Source: Spirochaetia bacterium
Lineage (GTDB): Bacteria; Spirochaetota; Spirochaetia; SZUA-6; Bin103
Length of the DNA: 64,000 nt
Direction of reading: 5' to 3'
Assembly (NCBI GenBank): GCA_965243555.1
Contig: OZ251575.1
Coordinates: 864,463 to 928,462 of the forward strand
The notes beneath the pieces were generated by a model. It searched no databases. It had not been told where the DNA came from and saw nothing but the letters and a program-made list of their open reading frames with translations. Position 1 is the stretch's first letter. Each line of letters begins with the position of its first letter. The position numbers and the translations under genes are program-made. This document shows, piece after piece, positions 3,927 to 29,677 of the stretch.

Positions 3927-3930
3927 CGGC

Positions 3931-13534: not shown

Positions 13535-15289
13535 ATGCCGCCACAGACGACGTACCTACCGGGCTTGGAGCCAGCCAACAGCACATCGGACGCGGCTCCG
13601 CCCCTGGCCATCTTACGGCCGGGGCTGCTCAGCACAGAGCAGGTGCTCGCGAAGTACCGAGACCTTCGCGGGGGCGCCCAGAGCACACGCGAGACTAAGC
13701 GCCAGCTCGTCCGCTGGCGCGCGACGCACGATCTCTTTTGGTTCGGTGACACCTTCCTCGGCTTGGGCGAATTCGTCGACCCGGTCAACAAGCGGCAGCG
13801 CGTCGATCCGATCCTGCACGGCGACCTGTGCAAGCAGTTGGCCGCGCGTACCTCCATCCTGATCCTCCTCCCGCGCGACCACGGTAAGTCGACCTGGGTC
13901 ACCGTCACGGTCGCCCAAGACCTGTTGGCGAACCCCGACTACGTTCGCACGCTAATAATTTCCGCCAGCGTGACCCTGGCCCGAGCGAGGCTACGCTATT
14001 TGGCCGACCTGCTCACCAGGCCCGCAGTGTTGTACTACTTCGCCGATATCATTCCGGAGCCTGGACGCGGATTCACAAATTGGGACGTTAAAAACGCCTA
14101 CGACCTGACCGTGCGCAAGAGCCCGAACCGCCTCGAGGCGCAGCACCAGGTGATGGTCTGCGGGTACGAAGCGCTGATTACCGGCCACCATTTCGATCAC
14201 ATAATCTGTGATGACGTGGTCGACGAAAAAACCGCCCGGAGCGAAACGAAGCGGCAGCTCGCAGCGGAACGCTTGACAGGCCTCAACGCGCTCAAGGAGC
14301 CCACCGGACGCTTCACGGTGATCGGCACACGATACCATGAGGACGACGTGTATAGCCGCTTGCTCAACTCCACGCTCCTGGAAACACACGTGGTACGGCA
14401 AGCCACCGAGCGCCCCCCGGAGGTCGCTACGGAGCCGGTACCGGACGGTGTCACGGCCGGAGCCCTCGAAGACCCTTGGAGCGCACCGATCTACGCGTTC
14501 TATGACAAGGAAATGCTCAACCTGGCCAAGGAGGCGGCATACGACTTGACGGGCCGCCACGAGTGGTTCTACACGCAGTACTACAACCAAGCGCGCGCAC
14601 CCAGCGAGGCGGTGTTCCCCGACCCGCAGAAGCACACATACGAGGACATACCGGTCAACGTGCTCACGACGTGCGAAGTGTTTATAGCGCTCGACACGGC
14701 CAACACCCAAAACGTCACGTCCGACCTCAACGCCATCGCCGTCGGCTACCGCGAGCCACAAGGGACCGTGTTCATCGAGGACACCGAGGCGCTAAAGGGC
14801 ACCTGGGAGGACGCCGCACGAGCGCTCGTGGGAATGATGCTGAAGCATCCGCCAAGAGGAGTCGCAGTAGAAACGACCTTCGCCGACAACTGGCTGGCGA
14901 TGTTCCGCCGCGTGCTGTCCGACATACTGCGCGACCTCGACTATGACCCGCCGCGCCTCCCGACACCCGAAATAGTGTTGCCGCGGCGTGGGCAGAACAA
15001 GGAGGAACGCATCGACCTCCTATTCGGTTCCGCATTCAGGACCGGCACCGTAGTGGTGCAGCGCGATCAGACCGAGCTGCTCGCCCAGATGGCCAGCTTT
15101 CCGAAGGGGCGCCACGACGACCTCGTGGATGCCACGGCGACCGTCTGCGCCCTCGCCGAGCCGTCCCAGCGCTACGTAACGTACTACGAACGCCCGAAAC
15201 CGCCGCCTAACCGCTTCGAGATGTTCCTGCACCGCAATCGCAAGTCCGGCTACCGGTACGGCGAAAACCTAGCCGGCTACCTGGCTTGA
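13535..15289 (+). CDS. terL: Terminase large subunit (584 aa).
   Basis: Walker A-like LLPRDHGKST, a DExx motif (IICDDVVDE), and a C-terminal nuclease-like region, matching the standard TerL architecture. Confidence 0.7.
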   Translation: MPPQTTYLPGLEPANSTSDAAPPLAILRPGLLSTEQVLAKYRDLRGGAQSTRETKRQLVRWRATHDLFWFGDTFLGLGEFVDPVNKRQRVDPILHGDLCKQLAARTSILILLPRDHGKSTWVTVTVAQDLLANPDYVRTLIISASVTLARARLRYLADLLTRPAVLYYFADIIPEPGRGFTNWDVKNAYDLTVRKSPNRLEAQHQVMVCGYEALITGHHFDHIICDDVVDEKTARSETKRQLAAERLTGLNALKEPTGRFTVIGTRYHEDDVYSRLLNSTLLETHVVRQATERPPEVATEPVPDGVTAGALEDPWSAPIYAFYDKEMLNLAKEAAYDLTGRHEWFYTQYYNQARAPSEAVFPDPQKHTYEDIPVNVLTTCEVFIALDTANTQNVTSDLNAIAVGYREPQGTVFIEDTEALKGTWEDAARALVGMMLKHPPRGVAVETTFADNWLAMFRRVLSDILRDLDYDPPRLPTPEIVLPRRGQNKEERIDLLFGSAFRTGTVVVQRDQTELLAQMASFPKGRHDDLVDATATVCALAEPSQRYVTYYERPKPPPNRFEMFLHRNRKSGYRYGENLAGYLA

Positions 15290-15800: not shown

Positions 15801-15830
15801 TATCGCCTATGATTACACTTATAGGCGATG
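15801..15830. promoter_or_regulatory. Inverted repeat TATCGCCTAT-N10-ATAGGCGATg overlapping the recombinase start codon and putative promoter (TTGACC at 15790).
   Basis: The arms match 9/10 bp. A -35-like TTGACC lies 5 bp upstream. Candidate operator or recombinase-binding site. Confidence 0.45.
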
Positions 15831-16817
15831 ATAGACATGCAGCCGGCGGGCCAGCCGCTCGCCGATACCCTGGGCACCGAGCTTGCCGCCAAGGACGTGC
15901 TGCGCATCGAGCAGGCCCTGGATGCAGCGCGCAGCAAGAACACCCGGCGCCAGTACAAGTCAGCTTGGGCGACCTTCGCTTCCTGGGCCAACCTCAACGG
16001 CCACAAGGCGTTGCCGGCGGAAGCGCAAGTCATCGCGGCCTACTTGACCGAGATGGAGAGCAACAGGAAGTCGGCCAGCACCATCGAAGGCGCGCGCGCA
16101 GCCATCGGCGCAGCCCACCGTGACGCAGGGCTCGTTGATCCTACGCAGCATGAAGGCGTCCGCCGGGTGTTGCGCGGCGTCAAGCGCCAAGCGCGCGGTC
16201 GCGGTCGCGGTCAGGCGCAGGGACTCACTGCCGAAGACATAGCGGCTATGCTCGCGACCGCCGACATCCCGCGCCAAACAGGACGCGGCATCGAGTCGAC
16301 CGATCAGGCATCGGCGCGCGGCGCCATCGACAAGGCGATCTGCGGCCTACTCTTCCACGGCGGCCTCCGCCGAAGCGAAGCGGCAGCCCTCACGTGGGGA
16401 GACGTGCTCATTAACGACACCGGCGTGCTGGTCACCGTTCGCACATCGAAGACGAACCAGAAAGGCGACCGCCACGACGTGCGCTTCCTCAAGAACGGGT
16501 GCGCCGCGGCCATGCGTAGCCTGCGCAACCGCCGCGAGTGCGACCTACAGGGCCAACCGGAGGCCGGGGACCTCGTCCTCGGCGGTCTCAACGGTGCCAG
16601 CATCGCAAGGCGCCTCGCCGCCGCCGCGCGCGCCGCGGGGATCGACGGCCGCATCACCGGCCACTCCGGGCGCGTCGGCCTCGCCACCGAGCTCACGCAG
16701 CGCGGCGCCAGCACGACCGAGACGATGCTCGCCGGCGGTTGGACCACGGCGCGGATGGTCGCGCACTACAGCGCGGGCGCGGTCGCCGAGAGGGGCGCGG
16801 TCGCAAAGTATCTCTGA
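15828..16817 (+). CDS. Cre-like tyrosine site-specific recombinase/integrase (329 aa).
   Basis: The C-terminus GHSGRVGLATEL...AGGWTTARMVAHY parallels Cre SGHSARVGAARDM...AGGWTNVNIVMNY (catalytic His, Arg, Trp, Tyr). The N-terminal domain parallels Cre (LPAEAQVIAAYL vs FPAEPEDVRDYL). An alternative start is the ATG at 15837. Confidence 0.8.
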   Translation: MIDMQPAGQPLADTLGTELAAKDVLRIEQALDAARSKNTRRQYKSAWATFASWANLNGHKALPAEAQVIAAYLTEMESNRKSASTIEGARAAIGAAHRDAGLVDPTQHEGVRRVLRGVKRQARGRGRGQAQGLTAEDIAAMLATADIPRQTGRGIESTDQASARGAIDKAICGLLFHGGLRRSEAAALTWGDVLINDTGVLVTVRTSKTNQKGDRHDVRFLKNGCAAAMRSLRNRRECDLQGQPEAGDLVLGGLNGASIARRLAAAARAAGIDGRITGHSGRVGLATELTQRGASTTETMLAGGWTTARMVAHYSAGAVAERGAVAKYL

Positions 16818-17660: not shown

Positions 17661-18464
17661 TCAGCCGGCAGCGAGCACCGCTACGAGGTTGGAGCGCTGC
17701 AGCAGGTCGGCGTCGGCGGAGCGCTCCAGGAAAGGACGGACGTCGCCGATGAGCTGACCGACGTCAAGCCCCGCGAGTTGTGCGCGAAGGATCGACCGCC
17801 ACTCCCGCGCCCGGTAGCGGCCGACGCCTTCGGTCTGATCCAGGGCGCTCTGCAGCAACGGCAGATTCGGCTCCACCGGCGGGCGCCGCGTTCGGTACCA
17901 CACCAGATCGTACCAATCCCGGCCCTTCCGGTAGCGGCGGGTCAGGAGCGCGTGCAACTTCCCGGCCATCAGCGACGGCAGATCGTAGTGCGCCACCACG
18001 AAGGTCACGCCGCGTGTTACGATCGTGCGTTCGATGTGCGCCCCGGCGGGCGGGCGGGTGTCGATCTCGATCTTGATGGCGAGTTTCTGTTGCGGATGAC
18101 CGGACAGCCCTGTCTCGGCGAGCAGCGAGGAGGTCCGTACCCACGCTACCTGTACGGTCCGGCGGTCATTCCAGCGAACGGTACTGTCGAAACCGGCGAA
18201 GTGGAGGTCGCGCTTCAGCTTCTCCAACCAGACGCGCGGGTGGTATTCCGCCGCCGAGGTGCGACAGAAGTCGAGGTCCTCGGAGAAGCGCGGCAGATCC
18301 TCCAGCAGCCGGAGCGCGGTACCGCCCACAAACGCCACCGACCGTGACGCTTCGCTCTCGTGCAACGACCTCAGGGTGAAAACCTGGAGGTACTCGCGTA
18401 GCGCGTTGAGGCGTTGCGTGGGGTCGGTGTAGCGCTCGGCGGCGGCGAGCGCCTGCTCCTTCAC
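17661..18464 (-). CDS. abiEii: AbiEii/AbiGii-family nucleotidyltransferase toxin (type IV TA), ~267 aa.
   Basis: Family-typical motifs: FVGGTALRL, LPRFSEDLDF, and the C-terminal DWYDLVW. The GTG start at 18464 overlaps the TGA of abiEi (GTGA). Confidence 0.75.
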   Translation of the reverse strand: MKEQALAAAERYTDPTQRLNALREYLQVFTLRSLHESEASRSVAFVGGTALRLLEDLPRFSEDLDFCRTSAAEYHPRVWLEKLKRDLHFAGFDSTVRWNDRRTVQVAWVRTSSLLAETGLSGHPQQKLAIKIEIDTRPPAGAHIERTIVTRGVTFVVAHYDLPSLMAGKLHALLTRRYRKGRDWYDLVWYRTRRPPVEPNLPLLQSALDQTEGVGRYRAREWRSILRAQLAGLDVGQLIGDVRPFLERSADADLLQRSNLVAVLAAG

Positions 18465-19102
18465 AGTTCCTCGCCTTCGTCGTCGTGCAGGGAGCGGCAC
18501 TCCTGCCACACCCGCACGGCATGCCGAATCCGCGGCTTGCCCATACGCCGCGCAAGGGCGGCGAGGCGGCCAAGGTCGAACAGTTCGGTCTGCTGGAATC
18601 GCATCTCCGCCATCCGGTCGACATCCCACGCGCCGGGCGTCAGGTGGAACAGGTCAAGCAGCGCCTTCTCCACCGTGGCGACGATTGCGTCGCTGCCCGC
18701 GACCCGGACGGTGCGGTACCCGAAGAAGAACTCCCGCTTCACGTTGCGGTAGCTGAACGTGCCGAGCCGGTTCGCGAATTCGCGCGGGGTGCGCGTGGTG
18801 ACGCTGGTGTAGACCGGCACGCTTTCGGGAATCACGCCGTAGAAGCTCAGCGCCCACGCGCCGCTCAGGTAGGACGGGGCGTACAACGCGTTGGCCAGCG
18901 CGGCCGGCGCCAGCGGCGCGCGCCGGTAGCGGTCGGCCAGCGTGTAGCGGCCGCGGCGCAGGGCGACCACCTTGCCGGCCCGGCCCCAGCGGTGGAGCTG
19001 GCTCACCACGCTCGCCCGCGGCGCCGCGCTGAGCTGGGTCACCGTCGCCAAGTCGAACCACGGCTCCGCGCCGAGCAGCTCCACGACCGTGTCAAATCTC
19101 AT
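18461..19102 (-). CDS. abiEi: AbiEi-family antitoxin / transcriptional regulator (213 aa).
   Basis: The N-terminal wHTH-like region and C-terminal domain fit AbiEi (COG5340-like). It is immediately upstream of, and overlapping, the AbiEii toxin gene. Confidence 0.7.
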   Translation of the reverse strand: MRFDTVVELLGAEPWFDLATVTQLSAAPRASVVSQLHRWGRAGKVVALRRGRYTLADRYRRAPLAPAALANALYAPSYLSGAWALSFYGVIPESVPVYTSVTTRTPREFANRLGTFSYRNVKREFFFGYRTVRVAGSDAIVATVEKALLDLFHLTPGAWDVDRMAEMRFQQTELFDLGRLAALARRMGKPRIRHAVRVWQECRSLHDDEGEEL

Positions 19103-19208: not shown

Positions 19209-20756
19209 TCAGCCGGCGGCCACCTCGAAGGCGGTCACGTTGCGAGTCGCGCGGCTGAACTCCACCCCGAGCAGGTGGATCGGCTCGCGCCCGTCCCGGT
19301 ACTTGGCGGCGTAGTCGCGCTCCCGCAACTGCGCCAGCGCGGTCCCCTCCCCCGCCTGCTCCGTTACCTTGAACTCGAACAGGTACACCTGCCCGCCGGC
19401 CCGCACCGCCATGTCCAGCCGCCCGACCGCGCTCGAATCCTCCACCACAATGTCATAGCCCAGCGCCGCGAAGTAGGAGTAGAACACGCTCGCGTAGTAG
19501 CCCTCGTAGCGGGCGATGTCGTTGTTGGAGTGCCACTCATACGGGATGCTCGCAAAGAAGGCGTGGAACAGCTCCCGCAGCCCGGCGCAGTCGGCCGCTT
19601 CCAGCAGGCGCGCCAGGCGGAAGCTGTTGGCCATCTGCCGGTCTCCGTCCCGCACCAGATGGCGCAACAGCACGTCGTTCAGGCTCTGCCGCACCTCCCG
19701 GTTCGGGTAGCCCAGCCGGTACACTGCCCTCCCGCCCAGCTCATCTTCCGCCTTGATCGTCAGGTAGCCGGTCTGGAACAGCAGCGCCTGGGTGCCTATG
19801 TGCTCCACGTCGAACGCCGACAGCAGCTCCTCGGTACCGACCATGTCGGCCAGCGACACGGTGGAGACTCGCCGCTCAAACAGCGTGTCGATCAGGAACG
19901 CCGGCGAGCCGGTCTCGAACCAGTGGGGCTTGAACTTGCGGCTGTCGAACAGCAGCAGCAGGTCAAACGGGTTGTACACCTTCTCGTCGCCCAGCCAGCA
20001 GTACCCGTTGTACCACTCGCGGATGCGATCGCGGTCCAGCCCCGGCAGCTCCGGGGCGAATACGGTGTCCAGGTCTTCTTCGGTGTAGCCGCAGATCGCC
20101 GAGTAGCGCGGGTCCAGCGTGAGGTCGGTGAGGTTGTTGAGGTCGGAGAACAGACTCATCTTGGAGAACTTGCTCACCCCGGTCAGGAAGGTAAAGCGCA
20201 CGTGCGCTTCACTGTCCTTGATCACCCCGTACAGACCGCGCAGGAAGGCGCGGTTGGCGCGGGCTACCTCGGGGGTTTCCAGCGCGTCCAGGATCGGCTT
20301 GTCGTACTCGTCCACCAGCACCGCCGCCTGCTGCCCGGTACGCTCGTGCAGGGCTTCCAGCAGGGATGCGAAACGGCCCGGCGCCGTCAGGTAGTCCGCC
20401 TCCACCCCGTTGCGCCGCTCCACGGCCGCGAGCTGCTCCATGACGTTGTCCCGCAACAGTCCCGGCTCCCTGAAACTGCCGCCGCCGAAGCTGAGCCGCA
20501 CCACGGGATGGCGCTGCGACCAGTCATGGCGTCCGTGGACGTGGAGCCCCTCGAACAATGCCTTGCTGCCCTCGAACAGCTCCTTGAGCGTGTCCAGAAA
20601 CAGACTCTTGCCGAACCGCCGCGGCCGCGACAGAAAGTAGTGCGTGCCCCCGTCGAGCAGACGTTCGACGTAGGGCGTCTTGTCCACGTAGTAACAATTC
20701 CGCTTGCGGAGCGTGCGGAAGGTCTGGATGCCGGTGGGCAGCCTGCGCCGGACCAT
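19209..20756 (-). CDS. Paralog A1: AAA-ATPase-like N-terminal domain plus C-terminal PD-(D/E)XK nuclease-like domain (~515 aa).
   Basis: N-terminus MVRRRLPTGIQTFRTLRKRNCYYVDKT..YFLSRPRRFGKS (the predicted-ATPase family signature). The C-terminus has D...FEFK (PD-(D/E)XK). I trimmed the track ORF to the Met homologous to the A2/A3 start. Confidence 0.7.
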   Translation of the reverse strand: MVRRRLPTGIQTFRTLRKRNCYYVDKTPYVERLLDGGTHYFLSRPRRFGKSLFLDTLKELFEGSKALFEGLHVHGRHDWSQRHPVVRLSFGGGSFREPGLLRDNVMEQLAAVERRNGVEADYLTAPGRFASLLEALHERTGQQAAVLVDEYDKPILDALETPEVARANRAFLRGLYGVIKDSEAHVRFTFLTGVSKFSKMSLFSDLNNLTDLTLDPRYSAICGYTEEDLDTVFAPELPGLDRDRIREWYNGYCWLGDEKVYNPFDLLLLFDSRKFKPHWFETGSPAFLIDTLFERRVSTVSLADMVGTEELLSAFDVEHIGTQALLFQTGYLTIKAEDELGGRAVYRLGYPNREVRQSLNDVLLRHLVRDGDRQMANSFRLARLLEAADCAGLRELFHAFFASIPYEWHSNNDIARYEGYYASVFYSYFAALGYDIVVEDSSAVGRLDMAVRAGGQVYLFEFKVTEQAGEGTALAQLRERDYAAKYRDGREPIHLLGVEFSRATRNVTAFEVAAG

Positions 20757-20769
20757 TCGTTCTCTTACC

Positions 20770-22662
20770 TCACACCCACGCCAGCAGCTCAAAGACGGTG
20801 TTGGCAAGCAACGTTTCGCCGTTGCCCACCAGGTAGACGATGTCCTTATCCGTATTAACCGTAGTGCCCGACCATTCCCGTTGTAACACTATCTTGACCC
20901 TGCGAACGGTGGCATCGTTCGTGGCCGACACCAGGTAGACGTTTGCGCCCAACCCGGTAACCCTTTGGTTCCACAGGACAGACGCCGCGAATCCCGTCCA
21001 CGGCAGAACCACTTCGGAGACTACCGCCGCACCGATCTTGACGCGAAACACGAGACCCAACCACGAATTCGGCAGCCGCCGCGGAACGTTCATCTCGCTT
21101 ACCCCACGCGCCGGTGACACCAGGTCGAATCCTGCGGGCGCCGTCCCCTCGATGACCCAGTTGACCGGCGGAAGCGTAGACGCGGAGTACAAGCCGGCGG
21201 CGGGCGACAGCGTCGCTATCAGCGCGCCGACGTGATTCGGCGTCCACGCCGCCGGCGTCTCGGTGCCGTCCGCAGCGACTTTGACCCACGAAAGCGTGCC
21301 GGCGGTCTCGTCCAGGCTCTTGACGTGCTGCTCGCGCGCCTCCGCCTGCAGCCGCGCCTTGCTCATGGTGCGGTAGCCGTACAACGACGCCTCAGGGTAT
21401 GCCGTAACCGCCTTCGACGCCGTAAACGCGGCCACGTAAAACCCGACGTCGCCCAAGTACAGAATCCCAGCAGCAGGGTCGTATGCCGCCCCCGTCAACC
21501 CGCGAAAGCCGGACCGGCCTGCCGTTACCTGCGAACCGGTGAGGGTAAGCCCCGGAACTTCTTTACCGGTGGCTACGTTGTAGGCGTACACCGCGTCTCC
21601 GCTGCCCCCGTAGATCAGCACGTCCCCTACGAACGTCGCAGCGCCGACCCCCTCCGTTCCCGGCAGCTTCACGTGCTTGGTAGCCGTGCCGCTCTTGAAC
21701 ACGCGCGCAAGACCGAACCCGTCAATCACCCACAGATCGTTGTCGTGCCATGCCATACACCACACGCTTCCCAACCTGCCAACGGCCAACTTGGAAACTT
21801 TGATCTCGTCCCCGGCCACCTCCTCGGGCCTTTGCTCAGCCGTTCCGGGGTGCGACAACCTGAACACCTTGATCGGCTTACGGTACCCGTCCGCCGTAAT
21901 CGCGAGCTTTTTGCTGGTGTGGTTGTAGGACAGTCCATGGACCGGAGCAACACCAGTCCCGGTGATGTCCGCGCCGGGAAACCTGCGACCGTTCTTGAAC
22001 GCGAAGACTCTGCCCGAACGAGTACTGCCAACGAGGACCACGCCATTCTCAACGACTTCCAAGGCGCCTGGCTTGATCCTGCCCAACTCAGTCGCATCAA
22101 TGTCCTTGCTGCTATCTCGGTTCCACCCCGTTACCGCGCCATGCGTGAGCCGAAAATTGATCCTCACGTATGCCGGGGCCTCAGTGCTCAGCACAGCAGG
22201 ATCGCCGCCAAGCGCCTCCGCGGTGACGATCGCCAGGGTATCGGTGGTCCCCGTGTCCTTGATCACCTTCTCAATGCTCTTCCTATCCGTCACCGCCGCC
22301 TCCGCAGTGGCGCCCATCTGCAAGATAAGCGCATCGACCGTGCCGGCGGCGAACAGGTTGGCCAGCGTCCGAGAGGCGTCATGCGGCAAAGTCGTCACCT
22401 TGAACTTGCCGGCGTCCCGGTTGCCGCTCGTACCCACGCGCACGTAGGAAAACTGCGCAGTCACCGCCCCGTCCGCGCTAATCGGGAACGTGCCCTGATA
22501 GGTCCGCGTCCGGGCGTTGTGCTCCAGCCGCACTACGTGAGGATCGGACTTCTGAATCGCCTCCAGACGCCACTCTTTGACCGGATCAAGCGCCCGTTGC
22601 GCGAACTTGTCGGCTGCGGCCAATTCACGGCCGGCTTGCGGCCGGGGATTGGTAACCGCCAC
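20770..22662 (-). CDS. Paralog B1: large protein (630 aa) with a beta-propeller-repeat body related to the phage tail protein, plus the conserved B-family C-terminal domain.
   Basis: GTG start per the track. The body shares repeats and the motif LSWVKVAADGTETPAAWTP with the 3931..7593 tail protein (NVLSWQDKAADGTTTPRQWTP). The C-terminal ~110 aa are homologous to B2 and B3. The 5' end sits out of frame behind a leader module. Confidence 0.55.
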   Translation of the reverse strand: MAVTNPRPQAGRELAAADKFAQRALDPVKEWRLEAIQKSDPHVVRLEHNARTRTYQGTFPISADGAVTAQFSYVRVGTSGNRDAGKFKVTTLPHDASRTLANLFAAGTVDALILQMGATAEAAVTDRKSIEKVIKDTGTTDTLAIVTAEALGGDPAVLSTEAPAYVRINFRLTHGAVTGWNRDSSKDIDATELGRIKPGALEVVENGVVLVGSTRSGRVFAFKNGRRFPGADITGTGVAPVHGLSYNHTSKKLAITADGYRKPIKVFRLSHPGTAEQRPEEVAGDEIKVSKLAVGRLGSVWCMAWHDNDLWVIDGFGLARVFKSGTATKHVKLPGTEGVGAATFVGDVLIYGGSGDAVYAYNVATGKEVPGLTLTGSQVTAGRSGFRGLTGAAYDPAAGILYLGDVGFYVAAFTASKAVTAYPEASLYGYRTMSKARLQAEAREQHVKSLDETAGTLSWVKVAADGTETPAAWTPNHVGALIATLSPAAGLYSASTLPPVNWVIEGTAPAGFDLVSPARGVSEMNVPRRLPNSWLGLVFRVKIGAAVVSEVVLPWTGFAASVLWNQRVTGLGANVYLVSATNDATVRRVKIVLQREWSGTTVNTDKDIVYLVGNGETLLANTVFELLAWV

Positions 22663-22820
22663 ACCTTCGGCTCGCCCGTAATCGCTACCGCCTGCGTCTC
22701 CTTCCCGCTCGAAATGATGACGTTCGTAGCCGCAAGCAGTGCCTCATTATGCCGCAGTGCAGCCTCGAACTCGGAGGGCTGTGGGTTCGATTGCCGTCTC
22801 GGCCCCGTAGGTCGCAGCAT
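22533..22820 (-). pseudogene. Leader-module ORF (MLRPTGPRRQSNPQPSEFEAALRHNE...) that runs out of frame into the B1 body.
   Basis: AGGAGG-N8-ATG leader near-identical to the B2 5' end. The reading frame is offset by 1 nt from the B1 frame. This may be a recombination junction, a frameshifted gene, or a site of programmed frameshifting. Confidence 0.35.
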
Positions 22821-22824
22821 CAGC
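22778..22824. repeat. Conserved leader-module core (type I) upstream of B1.
   Basis: About 47 bp (CGATTGCCGTCTCGGCCCCGTAGGTCGCAGCATCAGCTCCACCTCCT) near-identical to 24606..24652. It contains the RBS and start of the leader peptide. Confidence 0.7.
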
Positions 22825-23107
22825 TCCACCTCCTTGCATCTTTGCATCTTTGCGCAGCCGCGCCGTAGCGTGCCAGTTCAGACCCATTCGTATACCTCAA
22901 TGGTTGCTTGGGCCGGAATCTCATTGCCATTACCACGCACGTCAAGCTTGTGTCCGCGCGGTCCGGGTCGGCATCCGGTACCTTCGGCGTGCCCGGAATC
23001 GCTACCGCTACCGACTCCTTCCCGCTCGGAATGGTGACGTTCGCCGCCGCCGTAAGCAGTTGCTCGTCGTACCGTAGCGCCTGCTCGAACTCAGCCCGCC
23101 CTACCAC
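22820..23107 (-). pseudogene. Truncated B3-type 5' gene fragment (VGRAEFEQALRYDEQLL...DPDR, then divergent).
   Basis: It matches the B3 N-terminal ~50 aa and diverges after DPDR. It is preceded by a type II leader carrying ACG in place of the ATG. Confidence 0.4.
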
Positions 23108-23177
23108 TTGGCACTCGCCTCAATCTGCCCCCGCACCGGCGGCTGCGCTATCGGCCGCCGGTGGCGGGGCCGGGGGT

Positions 23178-23224
23178 TGATGGCCGTTTCGGCCCGTAGG
23201 GTCGCAACGTCAGGTCCACCTCCT
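23178..23224. repeat. Conserved leader-module core (type II, with start codon mutated to ACG) upstream of the truncated B fragment.
   Basis: Near-identical to 29628..29677. Confidence 0.7.
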
Positions 23225-24638
23225 ATACCCATGCGCGCAATTCGAAAGTGGTATTGGTCTTGATAGGCGTGTTGTTGCCAATTACAAATAGCGCATCCTT
23301 GCGTGGACGGATGTACTCTCGCTGCAGCGCCAACTTGATGTTGCGCCTCGTCCTGTCATCGGTCGCATTGATGATGTAAACTGATGTACCCAAATGGTCT
23401 TCGACTTCGCTTTGCCAGGCTGATCCTGTCCGGAAAGGCAACCACGGGACGTACACCCTCTCTATTACCTTCACCCCGACCTTCACCACGACGACCAACC
23501 CCAACCAGGATTCCGGAAGCACCCTGGGAACGTTCATCGAACCGAAGACATGCGGCGGGCCGACCCGGTCGAAGCCCGTCGGAATGCCGCTTGAAAACAC
23601 CCAGTCGGCTCCGGGGCGCGCGCTAGCCCCTGGCGTTCCCGCCGGCCACTCTAGTGTTGCTACCAAGGCCCCCACGTGAGTCCTCGGGGCCGCGTCCGTG
23701 GGTGAAAGGGATACGCCAAGGTCCGCGGTGATGCGGAACGTGCGAGACTCCGCTGCTCCCTGGTAGGTCCAGTAGTAGCCGGTGGTGTTGTTGGCGTTGC
23801 GGCCAAGGTAGAAGTGAACTTCGCCGAGCTTGACGTTCGACCGGTACACGCCTACGCCGCCGCCGATCTCCAGCCCCTCCACGGGGTCGCCAACTTCCCA
23901 ACTCGCCACCGCCGCAAGCTCCGAGAGAAAGACAATCTCGGTGATGTCGTGCGTCCTATTATTGTCGGTGGTGAAGCCAATATCGTCGGTCCTGCCGCCG
24001 CCGGTGATCGTCAGGGTCAGCGACACGTACAGCTCTCCGCGGTTGTAGTCGTCCAGGTCCAATGGCGTGCTGAACGGAATCAGCGCGGCACCACTAACTT
24101 GGTTGTCGGAGCTGTCATTCACGTCAAGGGCAGCGATGGTGGCGCGATCTTCCAGCACGGTGAGGCGCGGAACAGGGGGCAGCTTTACCGCCGCGATCTT
24201 CGACGCGTTCGAACGGCGCGCCCACGGTTCAAGGTCAATCGAAGACACCGTGATCGCTACCGAGTAGGTGCCCGCCCGATCCGCGGAGAACAGGAACTGC
24301 GAATCGGTCGACCGCGCCAGCATGCAGAGCGTGCTGCCCATCGAATGCACGACGGCGTTCTTTGAATTCAGCTCCGCGCCGCGCGTAACTACCGGCTTCG
24401 CCAGCAAGGCCGACAGGTCGAACCGCACGGCGCTGACGCCCACCTTCCATATCACCTCACGGTCCGGGTCGGCATCCGGCACCTTCGGACTGTCCGTGAT
24501 CAATGCCGCCTGCGTCTCCGACCCGTTTTGAATGGTCACGCTCTTCGCCGCAGGCCATGGCTCGTTATGCCGTAGCGCCGCCTCGAACTTGGAGGGCTGT
24601 GAGTTCGATTGCCGTCTCGGCCCCGTAGGTCGCAACAT
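23223..24638 (-). CDS. Paralog B2 (~471 aa): fused leader, B-type body, and conserved C-terminal domain.
   Basis: AGGAGG lies 8 nt before the ATG at 24638. The N-terminus is MLRPTGPRRQSNSQPSKFEAALRHNE. The body is homologous to B3. The C-terminus is homologous to B1 and B3 (NVPRVLPESWLGLVV...FELRAWV). Confidence 0.55.
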   Translation of the reverse strand: MLRPTGPRRQSNSQPSKFEAALRHNEPWPAAKSVTIQNGSETQAALITDSPKVPDADPDREVIWKVGVSAVRFDLSALLAKPVVTRGAELNSKNAVVHSMGSTLCMLARSTDSQFLFSADRAGTYSVAITVSSIDLEPWARRSNASKIAAVKLPPVPRLTVLEDRATIAALDVNDSSDNQVSGAALIPFSTPLDLDDYNRGELYVSLTLTITGGGRTDDIGFTTDNNRTHDITEIVFLSELAAVASWEVGDPVEGLEIGGGVGVYRSNVKLGEVHFYLGRNANNTTGYYWTYQGAAESRTFRITADLGVSLSPTDAAPRTHVGALVATLEWPAGTPGASARPGADWVFSSGIPTGFDRVGPPHVFGSMNVPRVLPESWLGLVVVVKVGVKVIERVYVPWLPFRTGSAWQSEVEDHLGTSVYIINATDDRTRRNIKLALQREYIRPRKDALFVIGNNTPIKTNTTFELRAWV

Positions 24639-24652
24639 CAGGTCCACCTCCT
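24606..24652. repeat. Conserved leader-module core (type I) at the B2 5' end.
   Basis: Matches 22778..22824. Confidence 0.7.
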
Positions 24653-24717
24653 TACATCTCTCTGTGCCGATAGTAGCTCACCTCGCCGTCCACCGCCACC
24701 GTGCCACCCACCGCAAT

Positions 24718-26583
24718 CTAGTCGTTGTCCAGGATGGTGACGGTCGCCGTGCACCGCCCCCCGCAGGTTACGTTGGTACTGTGAGGCCGATCATCAGTTG
24801 GGGTCAGGCCGATTTCCTCCAGATCGCGCGTGCTGAGCGGGCCGATGTGCAGCTGGAACGTCTCCGTCTCTTCTTTGACGAGATCGCCGACTATGCGAAA
24901 CTGAATTTCTTGTGAACACCGAGGGTCATCGTCGCCCGGCGCACGACTGCAAGGGGGGTTCCCGGTGAAGTAGCCCCAAACAAAGTCGATGATTCCGCTA
25001 CGTAAATTAATAGGAAAAAGAATCGTGTAGTCGGTGCCAGAGCAGCTTCCCGAAGGGGTGTGCTGCGTCCGGGGTGAGGTGCACGGGGTTGCCGTGCCCG
25101 GCGTAGCCCAGTATTTGAAATACAAGTGCTCGGGGATTGAGGTCACATTAAGGTATATCTTGACCTGTACCCATCCGTTCTCGTAGCCTTCGGTTAAAGT
25201 ATCGTCGCGTTCCGTAAAGGTATAGGTCAGGTCGGCGAACGAGATCGTCGGCGGCGTCTCCTCGGCCGGTGGAGGGACTGGGGCCGGCGGCTCCGCGGTT
25301 GGCGGCGCCGGCTGCTCGGCCGGTGGCGGCGCTGGGGCGGTGGTGAACGACCACACCTTGCCAAAGCCCTCTAACCCGCTTTCGTTCAAGGCATCCACCA
25401 TCCAATAGTAGCGCGTTTCGGGCGCCAGCTCCGCCGACGTGGGGATCCTCAAGAAGGTAGACGTGGTTCGAGTCGACCTGTTCCGCCAAAGGAGCTCACT
25501 TGTGGTGCTCCAGTACACATTGTAGTGGGTAGCGCGGGGCGCGGCGGCCCAACTCAAAAGCGGCCCGGCAACCGTCACGCCGGTCGCCCCGTCGCGCGGC
25601 TGCGGGTTGCTGGCATATCCGGGAGCGCGTATGGTGGTGAACGACCACACGTTGCCGCGGATGGTGCCGGCTTCGGTCTTTACGTCCACCCGCCAGTAAT
25701 AGCGCGTTTCCCACAGCCGAGGCGCCCAGGCGCCAACCTCATAGGAGTTGTTCACGGTATTGAGCGGCCATTCCGTACCCTCAAGGCCGTCCGCGGGGAG
25801 ATCGTTCGTGGTGCCCATGTAGAAGTCGTAGCTGAGAGCGCCGGGCGCGGCGTCCCAACTGAAAGTTACTGCGCCGCGGCTCACGCCGGTCGCCCCGTTG
25901 CGGGGCGACGGGTTCCTGGCAGCTCCGGGAGGGCCGGTTGCGGGCGGCGGAGCACCGTCGCCCGGCGGCGGACTCGGAGCCGGCGGCGTCTCATCGCCCG
26001 GGGCCGGACCTGGGGCGGGCGGCGTTTCATCGTCGCGCGGCGACGGACCCACGGTCGGCGGCGCGGGCCGGCCGGCGGGGATGGTCGGCGCCACGTCGTC
26101 CGGCAGGGTTTCCAGGTCGAAGTCATCCGGCAGGTCGATCACTCGCGCTATGCACTCGTCGTTGGTGTTGACCACGCAGCTCGAGCCGTCGGCGCGGCGG
26201 CTGAGGACGTACAACCGATTACCGCCGGGGTAACGGATCACGATCAGATAGTACTGCGACTGCTGCGCCTGCTCGGTCCGGCCGTCCGGCACCGACAAGC
26301 CGGCCTGCAGCGACTGATTCGCGGGGTCCATGCAGGTGGCCGGCGCGGTGGCGCCGCCCATGTGCAGCTTGTCGGAGACGATCGCGCCGTGGACTCCCGC
26401 GCCGCGGTCGAGCAGCCGAATTGCCGAGTCGTCGCACGAGGCCTGCGGCGCGGCCGGCGCCGGGTTCGCCGCAGTCTCCGGCTCCGGGTCCGGGGTGACC
26501 GCCGCCCCGCAGGCGGCCAGGATTGCGGTCAGCGCGAACAGCGCCGCCCACCGTGTCCACAAGCGTTTCGTTGTCTTTATCAT
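24718..26583 (-). CDS. Paralog L1: secreted lipoprotein (~621 aa) with a Pro-rich linker, FN3-like repeats, and a C-terminal Calx-beta-like domain.
   Basis: Signal peptide plus lipobox (LTAILAAC). YYWRVD...VWSFTT FN3-like motifs occur twice. The C-terminal TVTILDND resembles a Calx-beta end. The first ~230 aa are near-identical to L2. I trimmed the start to MIKTTKRLW. Confidence 0.6.
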   Translation of the reverse strand: MIKTTKRLWTRWAALFALTAILAACGAAVTPDPEPETAANPAPAAPQASCDDSAIRLLDRGAGVHGAIVSDKLHMGGATAPATCMDPANQSLQAGLSVPDGRTEQAQQSQYYLIVIRYPGGNRLYVLSRRADGSSCVVNTNDECIARVIDLPDDFDLETLPDDVAPTIPAGRPAPPTVGPSPRDDETPPAPGPAPGDETPPAPSPPPGDGAPPPATGPPGAARNPSPRNGATGVSRGAVTFSWDAAPGALSYDFYMGTTNDLPADGLEGTEWPLNTVNNSYEVGAWAPRLWETRYYWRVDVKTEAGTIRGNVWSFTTIRAPGYASNPQPRDGATGVTVAGPLLSWAAAPRATHYNVYWSTTSELLWRNRSTRTTSTFLRIPTSAELAPETRYYWMVDALNESGLEGFGKVWSFTTAPAPPPAEQPAPPTAEPPAPVPPPAEETPPTISFADLTYTFTERDDTLTEGYENGWVQVKIYLNVTSIPEHLYFKYWATPGTATPCTSPRTQHTPSGSCSGTDYTILFPINLRSGIIDFVWGYFTGNPPCSRAPGDDDPRCSQEIQFRIVGDLVKEETETFQLHIGPLSTRDLEEIGLTPTDDRPHSTNVTCGGRCTATVTILDND

Positions 26584-26663
26584 CGTCAGTCTCCTCTCGG
26601 AACGGTCGCCAGTGCCCTGGGTATAACCCAGCGAGCGAGCGAATCTCCTGCGCGGCTCTGGTC

Positions 26664-28076
26664 CTAGTCGTCGTCTATGATCGTGAGTTTCGCCCGGCAC
26701 CGGCCGCAGGTCACCGGGAAACCTTTATGAGGGATGACTTCTATGAATACCGTCTCATTTTCTTCCTTTACCCGATCGCCGATAATGACTGGCCCATGAC
26801 TAAACGGCCCGCAGACTCGGTGTGGCGAACCTTCAGGAATATTGCGGCACGGCTCCATCTCATAGTGCGCGGAGAAATCAACCCAGTCGACTCCTTCCGC
26901 CACCCTCATTTGAAGATCGAAGTGCCCGTCGGTCGCCGTGCCCCCGCCCATCTTAAAGAAAATATGGAGGTCCCGGGCCGCCGTGACGGGCGAACTCAAG
27001 GTCACCTCGAAGTCGACATCAAAATACCCGTCGTCGCCTTCGAGAACGCTCTGATCGGCAGAAAGCGATATCGTCGGCTGCGCTGGCGTCTCCTCGGCCG
27101 GTGGAGGGGCTGGAACTGGGGCCGGCGGTGGCGCCGCGGCAGGAGCGGTGGTGAACGACCACACGGCGCCGCGGGTGGTCCCGGCTTCGTTCTTTGCGTC
27201 CACCCGCCAGTAGTAGACCGTTTCGGCATCCAGATCCGCCGAGGCTGAGATCCTCAAGGCCGTGAACGAGGTGTTGATCGGCGTATCCAGGTCGGTGTTC
27301 TCGGCGCCCCAGTACACGTCGTAGCTGAGCGCGCGCGGCGCGGCGGCCCAACTCAAGAGCGGACCGCCAACCGTCACGCCGGTCGCCGCGTCACTCGGCT
27401 GCGGACTGGTGGCAGCTCCGGGAGGCGTGCCGGCTGTGGGCGGCGGCGCACCGTCGCCCGGCGGCGGACTCGGAGCCGGCGGCGTCTCATCACCCGGGGC
27501 CGGACCTGGGGCGGGCGGCGTTTCATCGTCGCCCGGCGACGGACCCACGGTCGGCGGCGCGGGCCGGCCGGCGGGGATGGTCGGCGCTATGTCCTCCGGC
27601 AGGGTTTCGAGGTTGAAGTCATCCGGCAGGTCGGTCACTCGCGCTATGCACTCGTCGTTGGTGTCGACCACGCAGCTCGTGCCGTCGGCGCGGCGGCTGA
27701 GGACGTACAGCCGATTACCGCCGGGGTAGCGGATCACGATCAGATAGTACTGCGACTGCTGCGCCTGCTCGGTCCGGCCGTCCGGCACCGACAAGCCGGC
27801 CAGCAGCGACTGATTCGCGGGGTCCATGCAGGTGGCCGGCGCGGTGGCGCCGCCCATGTGCAGCTTGTCGGAGACGATCGCGCCGTGGACTCCCGCGCCG
27901 CGTTCGAGCACGCTGATCGCCAGGTCGTCGCACGAGGCCTGCCGCGCGGGCGGCTCCAGGTTCGCCGGCGGCTCCAGGTCCGGGGTGACCGCCGCCCCGC
28001 AGGCGGCCAGGATTGCAGTCAGCGCAAGCAACGCCGCCCACCGTGTCCACAACCACAATGCTTTCGTTGTCTTCAT
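26664..28076 (-). CDS. Paralog L2: secreted lipoprotein (470 aa) with an FN3-like repeat and a C-terminal Calx-beta-like domain.
   Basis: Start MKTTKALWLWTRWAALLALTAILAAC (lipobox). C-terminal motif KLTIIDDD. The N-terminal half is near-identical to L1. The C-terminal region is lower in GC. Confidence 0.6.
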   Translation of the reverse strand: MKTTKALWLWTRWAALLALTAILAACGAAVTPDLEPPANLEPPARQASCDDLAISVLERGAGVHGAIVSDKLHMGGATAPATCMDPANQSLLAGLSVPDGRTEQAQQSQYYLIVIRYPGGNRLYVLSRRADGTSCVVDTNDECIARVTDLPDDFNLETLPEDIAPTIPAGRPAPPTVGPSPGDDETPPAPGPAPGDETPPAPSPPPGDGAPPPTAGTPPGAATSPQPSDAATGVTVGGPLLSWAAAPRALSYDVYWGAENTDLDTPINTSFTALRISASADLDAETVYYWRVDAKNEAGTTRGAVWSFTTAPAAAPPPAPVPAPPPAEETPAQPTISLSADQSVLEGDDGYFDVDFEVTLSSPVTAARDLHIFFKMGGGTATDGHFDLQMRVAEGVDWVDFSAHYEMEPCRNIPEGSPHRVCGPFSHGPVIIGDRVKEENETVFIEVIPHKGFPVTCGRCRAKLTIIDDD

Positions 28077-28107: not shown

Positions 28108-29556
28108 TCATATCCACTGGAGCAGCTCGATGGAGGTGCCGGCCTTGATCTGCTCGGCGTTGCCCACGACCTCGAGGCGGTCCTTCGTCGTACTGGCCCA
28201 CTCGCGTTGCAGCACCAGCTTCACGGTGCGTGCCGTGGAGTCGTCACTTACGAGCAAATGGAATACGTTCGTGCCGAAGGGGGAGGGTCCTATCCGACTG
28301 TCCCAGGCAACGTCTTCGTGGATGGGGACCCAGGGAAGGAATACCTGCGACACCGTATTGGTGGTGCCCACCTTCGTCCGCACTACCACGCCCGCCATGT
28401 TATCCGGCAGCACCCTCGGAACGTTCAACTGCCCGTTGCTGCCTCCGGTCGCTTCGAAATCACGGGGAGCCCCGCTTTGCACCACCCAGGCCGCAGCCGG
28501 GCGCGCATTCGCCGCTAGCGTGCCGGCAGGAATGTCAAGCTTGGCAATCAACGGTCCGACGTGTCCGGTAGACGAAGTAGCCGCGGGCGCGTCAGTCCGC
28601 GAGAACGACACCTCCATCGTGGCGGTCAGTGTCACATCCGACCCGCTCGTCCCGCCACCGGAGTAGCGCAGCAGGTAACCGAGCTCGTTGTTGGCGTTCT
28701 TGGCAAAGTAGAACGACAGCAGACCCAGTTGGTTGAAGCTATCGTGCAGGTACACGCTGGAACCGACCGGCTCCCCGTGAAAGGGCCCACTGCTCACGTA
28801 CGTACCCAGTGCAGATACATCCGATGCCAACACTACTCCGTCGAACGTGTAGGTACGGTCCTCGTTCGTGCCGAAACCGGCCACTAGCACCGAACGATCG
28901 TCGAAGGTAACCGTCATCACCACGTGCAACTCGCCGGTCCGGTGTTCGTCCAGATCGAATGCCGGCGCCAGCGCCCTGAACGAGCCGGTTGACATGCTGT
29001 TGGTGTTATGGATGCGCATCCCGACAGCCCTCCCGGCGTGCAGAATCTGCAGCCCGGTCAGCTTCCGCACGCGCGCGTCGACCTGTGCCTGCGTCAGCCA
29101 CGGCGACGGCAGATTCGCCGCCGCGACCTTCGTCGCGTTCGACCGGCGCGCCCACGGTTCAAGGTCAATCGAGGACACCGCGAGCTCCACCGAGTAGGTG
29201 TCCGCCCGGTCCGCGGAGAACAGGAACTGCGAAGCGGCCGTCTCCGACGCGGCCGTCCGCGCCAGCATGCAGAGCGTGCTGCCCACCGAGAACACGACGG
29301 AGTTGGTTGAATCCAAGACCGTGGTCGTCGTAACTGTCACCGCCGGCTTCGCCCGCAACGCGGACAGGTCGAACCGCACGGTGCTGCCGTCCACCGTCCA
29401 TATCACCTCACGGTCCGGGTCGGCAGCCGGCACCTCCGGCGTGCCCGGAATCGCTACCACTACCGATTCCTTCCCGCTCGCAATGGTAACGGCCGTAGCC
29501 GGGAGCAGTTGCTCGTCGTACCGTAGCGCCCCCTCGAACTCGGCACGCGCTACCAT
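28108..29556 (-). CDS. Paralog B3 (482 aa): B2-like body and conserved C-terminal domain, preceded by a leader uORF.
   Basis: Its ATG lies within AAATGGTAG and overlaps the uORF stop. The N-terminus MVARAEFEGALRYDEQLL is homologous to the B2 segment SKFEAALRHNE. The body (STLCMLAR..SSIDLEPWARRSNA) is homologous to B2. The conserved C-terminus ends ..ELLQWI. Confidence 0.55.
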   Translation of the reverse strand: MVARAEFEGALRYDEQLLPATAVTIASGKESVVVAIPGTPEVPAADPDREVIWTVDGSTVRFDLSALRAKPAVTVTTTTVLDSTNSVVFSVGSTLCMLARTAASETAASQFLFSADRADTYSVELAVSSIDLEPWARRSNATKVAAANLPSPWLTQAQVDARVRKLTGLQILHAGRAVGMRIHNTNSMSTGSFRALAPAFDLDEHRTGELHVVMTVTFDDRSVLVAGFGTNEDRTYTFDGVVLASDVSALGTYVSSGPFHGEPVGSSVYLHDSFNQLGLLSFYFAKNANNELGYLLRYSGGGTSGSDVTLTATMEVSFSRTDAPAATSSTGHVGPLIAKLDIPAGTLAANARPAAAWVVQSGAPRDFEATGGSNGQLNVPRVLPDNMAGVVVRTKVGTTNTVSQVFLPWVPIHEDVAWDSRIGPSPFGTNVFHLLVSDDSTARTVKLVLQREWASTTKDRLEVVGNAEQIKAGTSIELLQWI

Positions 29557-29663
29557 TTGGCACCCGCCTCAATCCGCTCCCGCACCGGCGGCGGCGCTAT
29601 CAGCCGGCCGCGGCGGGGGCTGGGGCCCGATGGCCGTTTCGGCCCCGTAGTAGGTCGCAACAT
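29550..29663 (-). CDS. Leader uORF (37 codons, MLRPTTGPKRPSGPSPRRGRLIAPPPVRERIEAGAKW) upstream of B3, translationally coupled to it.
   Basis: AGGAGG lies 8 nt before the ATG. Its stop TAG overlaps the B3 start (ATGGTAG). It is the same leader as B2, with a ~75-nt insertion. Confidence 0.35.
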   Translation of the reverse strand: MLRPTTGPKRPSGPSPRRGRLIAPPPVRERIEAGAKW

Positions 29664-29677
29664 CAGGTCCGCCTCCT
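29628..29677. repeat. Conserved leader-module core (type II) at the 5' end of the B3 uORF.
   Basis: Matches 23178..23224. Confidence 0.7.

Follow-up and report, generated by a model that had tools for sequence, protein, structure and literature searches.

The leader that lies out of frame in front of gene B1 is very probably the scar of a deletion that removed an N-terminal domain, as judged from sequence comparison. B1 is most likely a recently disabled copy, poorly translated or not translated at all, and most likely belongs to a gene family in which deletions and the exchange of modules cause turnover and several copies are decaying. The complete statement, that B1 derives by deletion from a modular gene and that, as we infer, its body is no longer expressed efficiently, is considered probable, with less assurance than the deletion itself. 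The gene lies in a 64,000-nucleotide stretch of Spirochaetia DNA, hereafter the window, and all features of the leader/B1 arrangement were read from its minus strand (Table 1).

An illegitimate deletion very probably fused the leader at its last codon (GTG, the Val in ...PKV) with the middle module M at the codon for its first Val (GTG of VAVTNP...), with loss of the N-domain and linker and possibly of a whole neighbouring gene as well; it may have measured 0.3-0.4 kb, within one gene, or roughly 1.3 kb, with fusion of two adjacent genes. The leader occupies the place of P0028 in the syntenic contig L013. The strong Shine-Dalgarno sequence and ATG of the leader would now drive an ORF of 95 codons, which enters M in the wrong frame because the missing stretch is 3n+1 nt long, and stops at 22533. 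The body of 630 codons, composed of M and the C-terminal module C1, is intact, with neither its normal translation start nor its N-terminal domain, and the sole remaining start is a GTG that arose at the junction and lacks a usable Shine-Dalgarno sequence.

Table 1 Features of the B1 locus and of its paralogues in the window
Feature	Position	Strand	Remarks
Shine-Dalgarno AAGGAGG	22829..22835	-	8 nt 5' of the leader ATG; kept in 4/4 leader copies
Leader ORF	22533..22820	-	95 codons + stop; ATG at 22820, TAG at 22535-22533
Leader-homologous segment	22662..22834	-	matches other leaders of the family; homology stops at 22662
Junction GTGTG, deletion breakpoint	22660..22664	-	from blastn HSP ends and alignments
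B1 body	20770..22662	-	630 codons, GTG at 22662 to stop at 20770; no internal stop
TAA TGA stops in the B1 frame	22744..22749	-	28-29 codons 5' of the GTG; TGA at 22746-22744
8-nt tandem duplication GCAAAGAT x2	22838..22853	-	just 5' of the B1 Shine-Dalgarno; absent from syntenic contig L013
Ghost gene, 5' part	22954..23223	-	type II leader up to ...PKVPDADPDR; orthologue of P0056 5' end in L013
Ghost gene, 3' part	22878..22952	-	last ~18 codons + stop of the same paralogue (GNGNEIPAQATIEVYEWV*)
B2, intact paralogue	23223..24647	-	type I leader, N-domain, short middle region and C1 in one frame
B3, intact paralogue	28108..29676	-	type II 5' region with ~70-nt insert; main ORF ATG overlaps TGGTAG

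The leader, the junction and the B1 body

A preliminary description of this DNA had reported a type I leader with a ribosome binding site that runs into the B1 body in a shifted frame, and this arrangement was confirmed. Codons 1-53 of the leader ORF correspond to the type I leader of the family and codons 54-95 to the B1 body read out of frame; the translation is MLRPTGPRRQSNPQPSEFEAALRHNEALLAATNVIISSGKETQAVAITGEPKV, then WRLPIPGRK..., up to the TAG, and the out-of-frame tail includes the peptide WRLPIPGR. Four copies of the leader were found in the window, starting near 22833, 23223, 24651 and 29676, with none expected by chance. The B1 leader segment is 82 % identical to the leader of B2, 92 % identical to that of P0010 in L008 and 86 % identical to that of P0004 in L001.

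The leader ORF crosses the GTG at 22662 in a frame one nucleotide ahead of the B1 ORF, and passage from the leader frame to the B1 frame is a -1 (equivalently +2) shift. At the junction one G is common to the last Val codon of the leader (22664-22662) and the first Val codon of the body (22662-22660). The assembly reads GGTGTGG, where an in-frame fusion would read GGTGGTGG or GGTGG (22660-22666). The body consists of M, i.e. a linker, a beta-sandwich and a beta-propeller, and of C1.

Both a TAA and a TGA are present in the B1 frame upstream of the body, as had been described, although at a distance of 28 codons and not of about 32. The GTG at 22662 is the only start after the TGA at 22746, with no ATG, GTG or TTG in between. 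It was correctly noted that this GTG lacks a properly spaced Shine-Dalgarno sequence, with GAAGG only 2 nt before it, and no other in-frame start in the first 45 codons of B1 is preceded by one. A scan of 20500-25000 for sigma-70-like promoters gave none, such a scan being uninformative for this taxon. The idea that the leader DNA is a known RNA was rejected after the entire window had been scanned against Rfam and for tRNAs with no hit, as was that of a tRNA-like attachment site (GGTTCGATT on the plus strand), in which a T-arm cannot pair and for which ARAGORN gave a negative result.

The breakpoint compared with related loci

Homology to the leaders of related loci (L001 9986-10159, L008 2127-2304, L009 150-324) stops at position 22662 of the window, and homology to their bodies (L002 from 144, L001 from 10511, L008 from 2704, L009 from 643) begins at the same base. 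Relative to the intact genes, the stretch missing from B1 is 352 nt (L001), 400 nt (L008) or 319 nt (L009), in each case 3n+1, and the leader ORF, which is not in frame with the body, terminates at 22533. An intact, longer orthologue in syntenic position is carried by L002, which is 91.2 % identical over 2103 nt to window 22662-20561, extends into the same downstream gene, an AAA-ATPase, and encodes upstream of its position 144, in frame, the N-domain and linker (...SSIDIEPWARRSSAATMLAAGAGINVTDAPDGRKR followed by VAVTNP).

In the orthologue and in each full-length relative, leader and body are separated by ~105-135 extra codons, i.e. the N-domain and linker. All nine other relatives with a middle module and a full-length leader in the called N-terminus have leader, N-domain and M in one frame. 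A single ORF running through leader, N-domain, linker and M was found by alignment in P0004-P0012 and from their sequences in P0013-P0015 and P0017-P0019. Upstream, positions 931-2653 of L013 correspond to window 24677-22954 and positions 3781-4060 to window 22952-22662; collinearity of the contig with the window ends at the junction. The junction itself was found in no other sequence: a metagenome search with the pattern GCCGAAGGTN{0,6}GGCGGTTACCAA gave four chance matches, all in unrelated genes.

A chimera or pseudogene created by recombination between leader and body, the first of the two explanations offered originally, is thus supported by the single-base breakpoint, by the extra N-domain and linker in the orthologue and all full-length relatives, and by the constant 3n+1 gap. 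The comparison with orthologous loci that had been suggested as a check likewise favours a chimera, since the related loci hold leader, N-domain and body in one frame.

B1 does not stand alone in its damage. The two halves of a ghost gene, carried intact by L013 as the orthologue P0056, are joined out of frame after a deletion of 1127 nt (3n+2) about 100 nt upstream of the B1 leader, and homology at both deletion junctions is 0-1 nt. Broken copies also occur in related genomes, with several frameshifts and deletions in L001 16437-18935 and one frameshift in L012. B1 resembles the remnants left in tandem arrays by illegitimate deletions with 0-1 nt microhomology: a single base is shared at a sharp breakpoint, an intact longer orthologue exists, the length lost is not a multiple of three, and other broken copies are found nearby and in related genomes.

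Unlike such remnants, B1 retains a perfect body ORF of 630 codons and its dN/dS is not raised, which suggests that it is either very young or not fully dead. Compared with the orthologue, dN/dS was 0.49 for M and 0.42 for C1, against a family background of 0.6-0.8, and 18 synonymous and 22 non-synonymous changes are specific to B1. No further lesion and no relaxed selection were detected in the body. With no stops and no excess over background, long-term decay is not apparent, and the body may remain in use; an intact body with no extra relaxation would be expected if the lesion is recent, if the assembly has a one-base error or if the GTG start is still in use.

Alternative readings of the frame break

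It is possible, though unlikely, that B1 arose by the same deletion and still works, a protein of M and C1 being made from the GTG at 22662 and the leader ORF being only an upstream overlapping ORF. The intact ORF and the dN/dS of the B1 lineage are in line with this, and the public annotation has precisely this protein of 630 aa (P0001), which would begin (f)MAVTNPR... and has MAVTNPRPQAGR as predicted N-terminal peptide. Natural relatives without the N-domain exist, in which a very short leader is fused straight and in frame to M (MMRPTEPG to DKFAQ... in P0016 of L011, MTRPTDPS to EIFAQ... in L012); the N-domain is dispensable in some members, and a protein without it is not necessarily useless. 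However, a recent lesion would equally leave an intact ORF, the start lacks a properly spaced Shine-Dalgarno sequence as described above, and ribosomes coming from the leader would cross the GTG in the other frame and stop 43 codons further on, which should occlude initiation.

Less likely still is that the assembly or its consensus went wrong at the junction, by a missing G in GTGGTGG or an extra GT, with a leader-M-C1 fusion of 682-683 aa as the real gene. The correction would be needed exactly at the junction, and adding one G (PKVVAVTNP) or removing GT (PKVAVTNP) would each give a clean fusion. The body looks functional, and the source is probably an assembly from an uncultured organism, the consensus of which can carry indels; its MurJ is matched most closely, at 81 % or less, by 'MAG: Spirochaetia bacterium' chromosomes. 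Yet no homopolymer is present at the site (no run exceeds GG, and none of at least 5 nt occurs within 250 nt), B2, B3 and the 630-codon body are free of frameshifts, and the adjoining 1127-nt scar, which is unquestionably real, demonstrates that the locus truly decays. The loss of the N-domain would stand even with the frame restored. The fusion product would span ...AVAITGEPK/VAVTNPRPQAGR, a predicted tryptic peptide.

We consider it very improbable that B1 is phase-variable or a cassette, either silent and reactivated by slipped-strand loss of one GT or serving as recombination donor to expressed paralogues. The mosaic nature of the family, its high dN/dS and the presence of several tandem paralogues in direct orientation would fit such a role. 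However, the frame breaks of contingency loci typically have at least 5 repeat units or a homopolymer of at least 7 nt, and GTGTG amounts to 2.5 units only, well short of a tract able to switch. Neither a recombinase nor invertible repeats nor dedicated sites for recombination were seen at the junctions, both of which have the near-absent homology given above, and the silent-cassette idea has no direct evidence in its favour. Very improbable, too, is a related proposal in which the leader acts as an expression gate, with a low-rate +2 hop of Val-tRNA or the loss of GT throttling or switching B1 as an extra receptor-binding module; if true, it would place B1 in a phage-derived surface-protein repertoire of an uncultured Spirochaetia-like bacterium, diversified by module shuffling.

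The second of the original explanations, a ribosomal frameshift that recreates a B2-like N-terminus, found no support. No slippery heptamer of the form X XXY YYZ occurs in the whole 95-codon leader ORF, only isolated GGGG, TTTC, CCCC and AAAG tetramers, and no homopolymer of at least 5 nt in 22400-22900. The 133 nt from the junction fold with -48.6 kcal/mol, compared to -49.2 +/- 4.6 kcal/mol for shuffled sequences (z = 0.12); of the slippery heptamers and downstream RNA structure that were to be looked for, these regions thus have no heptamer and no structure above background. Even a perfect frameshift would not give a B2-like protein, as B1 is without the N-domain found after the leader of B2.

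B1 shares with programmed -1 sites (dnaX, IS3-family transposases, the phage tail chaperone G/GT) two overlapping ORFs, the downstream one in the -1 frame without a good start, but it differs from them in having no slippery heptamer, stimulatory structure or conservation; in L002 and all full-length relatives the region is a single in-frame ORF. With translational hopping (T4 gene 60; tRNA re-pairing) it shares identical take-off and landing codons, GUG and GUG at an offset of 2 nt, yet it lacks the stop after take-off, the take-off hairpin, the coding gap and the conservation of T4 gene 60 bypassing. In E. coli, forward hopping of tRNAs between identical codons is known to occur at a low level. 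Our search for literature on frameshifting at GUGUG gave nothing relevant. Any hop at this site would be incidental and rare.

Recoding that yields some leader-M-C1 fusion, by re-pairing of peptidyl-tRNA-Val from GUG (22664-22662) to GUG (22662-22660) or by a -1 shift in the 71-codon overlap, can be given hardly any credence: GUGUG does offer a perfect re-pairing codon two bases on (PKV-AVTNP) and a weak Shine-Dalgarno-like GAAGG abuts the site, but the next codon, UGG, is neither a stop nor a known hungry codon, no conservation exists because only this genome has the junction, and the deletion already explains the site. Nothing indicates programmed frameshifting at B1.

The B family and its phage-related modules

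With the deletion as preferred reading, an apparent candidate for recoding would turn out to be a scar, a finding of little significance in itself, and the annotation would be corrected, the 630-aa product being the distal two-thirds of a modular protein and not a complete gene. The interest of the B family is independent of the frameshift question. It comprises ~70 proteins, is lineage-restricted and unannotated, and has the architecture leader (~53 aa), N-domain (a beta-sandwich of ~95 aa), linker, optional M (beta-sandwich and beta-propeller) and C-terminal module. B2 was taken as the standard for the normal sequence after the leader. Modules are swapped among paralogues, and lipoprotein genes (P0003, P0009, P0016) take part in the exchange as well, and dN/dS is high throughout the family.

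The family is a fast-shuffling, phage-tail-fibre-like one. As in mosaic genes for phage tail fibres and receptor-binding proteins, a conserved N-terminus (leader and N-domain) is combined with swapped middle and C-terminal modules, and the domains are beta-sandwiches and beta-propellers. M and a second C-terminal module, C2, are homologous to a phage structural-module protein in the window: a protein of 1281 aa (3931-7776) near a portal gene, which has an N-terminal SU10_adaptor domain (E = 6e-7), aligns with M (E = 6e-22) and with C2 (E = 7e-24).

Unlike tail-fibre genes, however, B1-B3 are not part of the prophage-like block; they lie past the integrase, with AbiE / AAA-ATPase genes on one side and rpsA on the other, and the relatives of the B genes are flanked by housekeeping genes. 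Searches with P0010 and B2 (tblastn) against 50,697 phage records gave no match, neither Pfam nor PHROG scans assigned B1, B2 or B3 to a family, and a GTDB scan with the family profile gave no relatives among the species representatives. In P0003 a lipoprotein signal replaces the leader. The family, being modular and related to a prophage adaptor-fibre fusion, exchanging modules with lipoproteins and evolving with frequent deletions and a high dN/dS, is perhaps worth studying as a possible repertoire of surface or receptor-binding proteins.

The ~70-nt insert of the type II 5' region, with a TAG in a hairpin loop, was considered as a bypass of the T4 gene 60 type and rejected, as hairpin and upstream frame are not conserved among the copies and the main ORF has a conserved start of its own. 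For the model of B2 (pLDDT 73) Foldseek matched only generic jelly rolls (E > 0.001). The AF2 model of B1 matched a WD40-like beta-propeller (E about 1e-9), a fold that is not diagnostic of a fibre or spike, and the junction is predicted to fall in a disordered linker (B1 residues 1-40, pLDDT about 30), a position that would fit an unselected breakpoint.

The junction at the start of B1

The junction at the 5' end of B1, one of three fibre-like genes of a single family in the window (B1 to B3), is a real but ordinary deletion scar, in which the distal part of a modular gene is read in another frame than the conserved translation-start leader before it. All relevant features of the locus are on the minus strand. 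The leader ORF opens with MLRPTGPRRQSNPQPSEFEAALRHNEALLAATNVIISSGKETQAVAITGEPKV and continues with WRLPIPGRKPAVNW... up to its TAG, and the B1 ORF is read in a frame shifted by -1 (or +2) from it. The preliminary description had reported this out-of-frame leader, a stretch of the B1 frame free of ATG, GTG and TTG between the upstream stops and GTG 22662, and a GTG without a properly spaced Shine-Dalgarno sequence, GAAGG being just 2 nt ahead of it; the ORF and frame reading bears out all three. The TAA and TGA stops are also present, although 28 and not about 32 codons upstream.

The breakpoint was mapped by blastn of window positions 22900-22300 against four related loci. Leader homology stops at 22662 (matching L001 9986-10159, L008 2127-2304 and L009 150-324) and body homology starts at the same base (L002 144, L001 10511, L008 2704 and L009 643). 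The two overlap by one G, which belongs both to the leader Val codon GTG (22664-22662) and to the body Val codon GTG (22662-22660). Compared to intact genes the missing stretch is 352, 400 or 319 nt, in each case 3n+1, and the frames of leader and body therefore disagree. A join at the microhomology GGTG would give in-frame PKVAVTNP and a blunt join of GTG to GTG would give PKVVAVTNP; the actual junction is two bases longer than the former and one base shorter than the latter.

Two contigs are syntenic with the locus. L002 matches window 22662-20561 with 91.2 % identity over 2103 nt. The match extends beyond the B1 stop into the AAA-ATPase-like gene that follows in both, so that L002 carries the B1 orthologue in syntenic position; before its position 144 it encodes, in frame, the last part of the N-domain and then the linker. 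L013 931-2653 corresponds to window 24677-22954 (93.5 %; B2, the spacer and the type II leader of P0056), L013 2654-3780 is missing from the window, and L013 3781-4060 corresponds to window 22952-22662 (87.6 %; the 3' end of P0056, a spacer and the P0028 leader to PKV), where collinearity stops. Thus the B1 leader occupies the position of the P0028 leader, and the B1 body is orthologous to P0002. The deletion spans the interval between the end of a leader and the start of the middle module M; either a single gene lost 0.3-0.4 kb, or about 1.3 kb was lost across two neighbouring genes, alternatives which the non-overlapping contigs L013 and L002 do not distinguish. An 8-nt tandem duplication, GCAAAGAT GCAAAGAT, at 22838-22853 (minus strand), directly upstream of the B1 Shine-Dalgarno sequence, is absent from L013.

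In the ghost gene, a deletion remnant, a type II leader extends to PDADPDR; four odd bases follow and then, in a different frame, the final ~18 codons (GNGNEIPAQATIEVYEWV*) of the same paralogue. Set against the intact P0056 in L013, 1127 nt (3n+2) are missing, and the ghost-gene junction has no real homology. L001 16437-18935 (minus strand) contains three ORFs, broken by frameshifts and internal deletions, next to the intact P0004, and L012 (1-340) has a frameshift at a C-run (C6-7). Given the ghost gene and these disrupted copies, decay by deletion is common in the B family.

Features of the B1 locus, of the type II leader and of the prophage-like block
Feature	Position	Strand	Remark
Shine-Dalgarno AAGGAGG	22835-22829	-	eight bases, then leader ATG at 22820
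Leader ORF	ATG 22820 to TAG 22535-22533	-	95 codons
B1 ORF	GTG 22662 to 20770	-	630 codons
Stops TAA TGA, B1 frame	22749-22744	-	28-29 codons upstream of GTG 22662
Ghost gene	23223 to 22878	-	between B2 and B1
Type II 5' region, window	29556-29676, 23107-23223	-	
Type II 5' region, related loci	L001 14674-14830; L007 203-330; L013 2381-2510		
1281-aa protein, SU10-type adaptor domain	3931-7776	-	fused to regions homologous to M and C2
Portal, P22/SU10-type	11284-13131	-	
Terminase-like gene	13535-15289	+	
Integrase, tyrosine	15828-16817	+	

The state of B1 and the case for recoding

Of the explanations offered earlier, a recent chimera or pseudogene proved right, with the deletion junction at 22662, and we conclude that the lesion arose recently. 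B1 may be dead, may be expressed weakly from GTG 22662, or may truly be in frame if the consensus has a one-base error. The 630 codons contain no stop, dN/dS against L002 (0.49 for M and 0.42 for the C-terminal module C1) is within or below the generally high family background (0.59-0.83), with 18 synonymous and 22 non-synonymous substitutions specific to B1, and the N-domain is not obligatory, as two relatives carry a short leader directly on M. However, GTG 22662 has no usable Shine-Dalgarno sequence, no in-frame start preceded by one occurs in the first 45 codons, and ribosomes from the strong leader start would cross GTG 22662 out of frame, all of which disfavours expression of the body. 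Pairwise dN/dS of M is high family-wide (0.5-0.8; window 20770-22662 against L002, L001 and L008), which suggests relaxed or diversifying selection on B-family proteins generally.

Programmed frameshifting, which had been proposed to recreate a B2-like N-terminus, is unsupported: an X XXY YYZ heptamer is lacking in the leader ORF, homopolymers of at least 5 nt are absent from 22400-22900, shuffled sequence folds as well as the 133 nt that begin at the junction (z = 0.12), and the shifted product would not be B2-like because it would still be without the N-domain. The junction was not seen in the related loci, where P0004-P0012 and others read through leader, N-domain, linker and M in a single frame. 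A collection-wide search for the junction pattern with 0-6 middle bases gave only four matches, all in unrelated genes, and no other proteins clustered with B1 above 85 % identity. At GUGUG a tRNA-Val could re-pair two bases on with an identical codon, giving PKV-AVTNP; a literature search found no documentation of this phenomenon, and nothing suggests that the site is more than a breakpoint accident.

Modules and leaders of the B family

The surrounding gene family is a more interesting object than the junction itself. Two database searches gave about 70 relatives, all unannotated and without a Pfam domain, which originate from one group of ENA metagenomes and the source genome. From their sequences and an alignment we defined a leader L (up to ...PKV), an N-domain (PDADPDREVIW...SSIDLEPWARRSN), a variable linker (...AGAGINVTDAPDGRKR), an optional M of about 470 aa (VAVTNPRP...YRTMSKARLQAE) and a C-terminal module, which is C1 (...FELLAWV), C2 (...MTQAQYDA...ILYVIVG) or a third type (...IEVYEWV). 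L, N-domain, linker and M are in one frame in P0004-P0012 (alignment) and in P0013-P0015 and P0017-P0019 (sequences); read in this way, VAVTNP is an internal sequence of the family and not a start. In the AF2 model of B1 the first 40 residues are disordered, which places the junction in a linker, and a confident region including a WD40-like beta-propeller and a low-confidence C1 follow. The B2 model has its first 25 residues disordered, the N-domain as a confident beta-sandwich and two more beta-sandwich domains.

A natural alternative architecture occurs in L011 (450-520; MMRPTEPG followed by DKFAQ...) and L012 (1-60; MTRPTDPS followed by EIFAQ...), where M[MT]RPT[ED]P[GS], a very short leader, passes in frame straight into ...[KI]FAQ... 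of M, without L-core or N-domain. Between B2 and B3 lie two lipoprotein paralogues that have Pro-rich linkers and Fn3-like domains (window 24718-26700 and 26664-28076, minus strand; compare L008 5425-7449). The relative P0003 is a chimera of the N-terminus of such a lipoprotein with the second half of M and C1, and thus the lipoprotein and B families exchange modules.

The leader is present in four window copies, starting near 22833 (B1), 23223, 24651 (B2) and 29676 (B3), where none would be expected by chance. Type I leaders (B1 and B2) are joined in frame to EFEAALR..., and that of B2 passes in frame into PDADPDREVIW..., the N-domain. Compared to type I, the type II leaders (near 23223 and 29676) have a ~70-nt insert between the conserved 5' end and the main ORF, which begins MV[AG]RAEFE... 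at an ATG or GTG, the start always overlapping TGGTAG. The insert may be a 5'-UTR element, a coupling uORF or a small insertion. The type II 5' region is strongly conserved at the DNA level, its upstream reading frame varies between copies because of C-run indels, and the ghost-gene copy forms a perfect 10-bp hairpin (CACCGGCGGC/GCCGCCGGTG).

Phage-like relatives and neighbourhood

The left part of the window is a prophage-like block. Its 1281-aa adaptor-domain protein aligns with M (E = 6e-22) and C2 (E = 7e-24) of the B family, and shares with P0042 a ~95-residue segment (E = 1e-13) upstream of the L-core and N-domain of P0042. Judged by this homology, the B family and phage fibre or receptor-binding modules are related. 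However, the B genes are located outside the prophage block, and 50,697 phage records yielded no match; their relatives have housekeeping genes as neighbours, and one has a lipoprotein signal in place of the leader. We therefore term them phage-fibre-like and not tail fibres.

The source, probably an uncultured bacterium, has 68 % GC, and the best matches to its MurJ (81 %) come from assemblies labelled "MAG: Spirochaetia bacterium". Paralogues with AAA-ATPase_like and PDDEXK_9 domains flank the B locus (window 19209-20807, 29768-31315 and 31340-32884, minus strand), tandem or flanking and 78-90 % identical to each other in nucleotide sequence, and L001 has four of them in succession (1800-8060) next to its related locus. 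In the interval that separates the integrase from the B locus, the gene of an AbiEii toxin (nucleotidyltransferase) overlaps a putative AbiEi-like antitoxin gene (window 17661-19102, minus strand).
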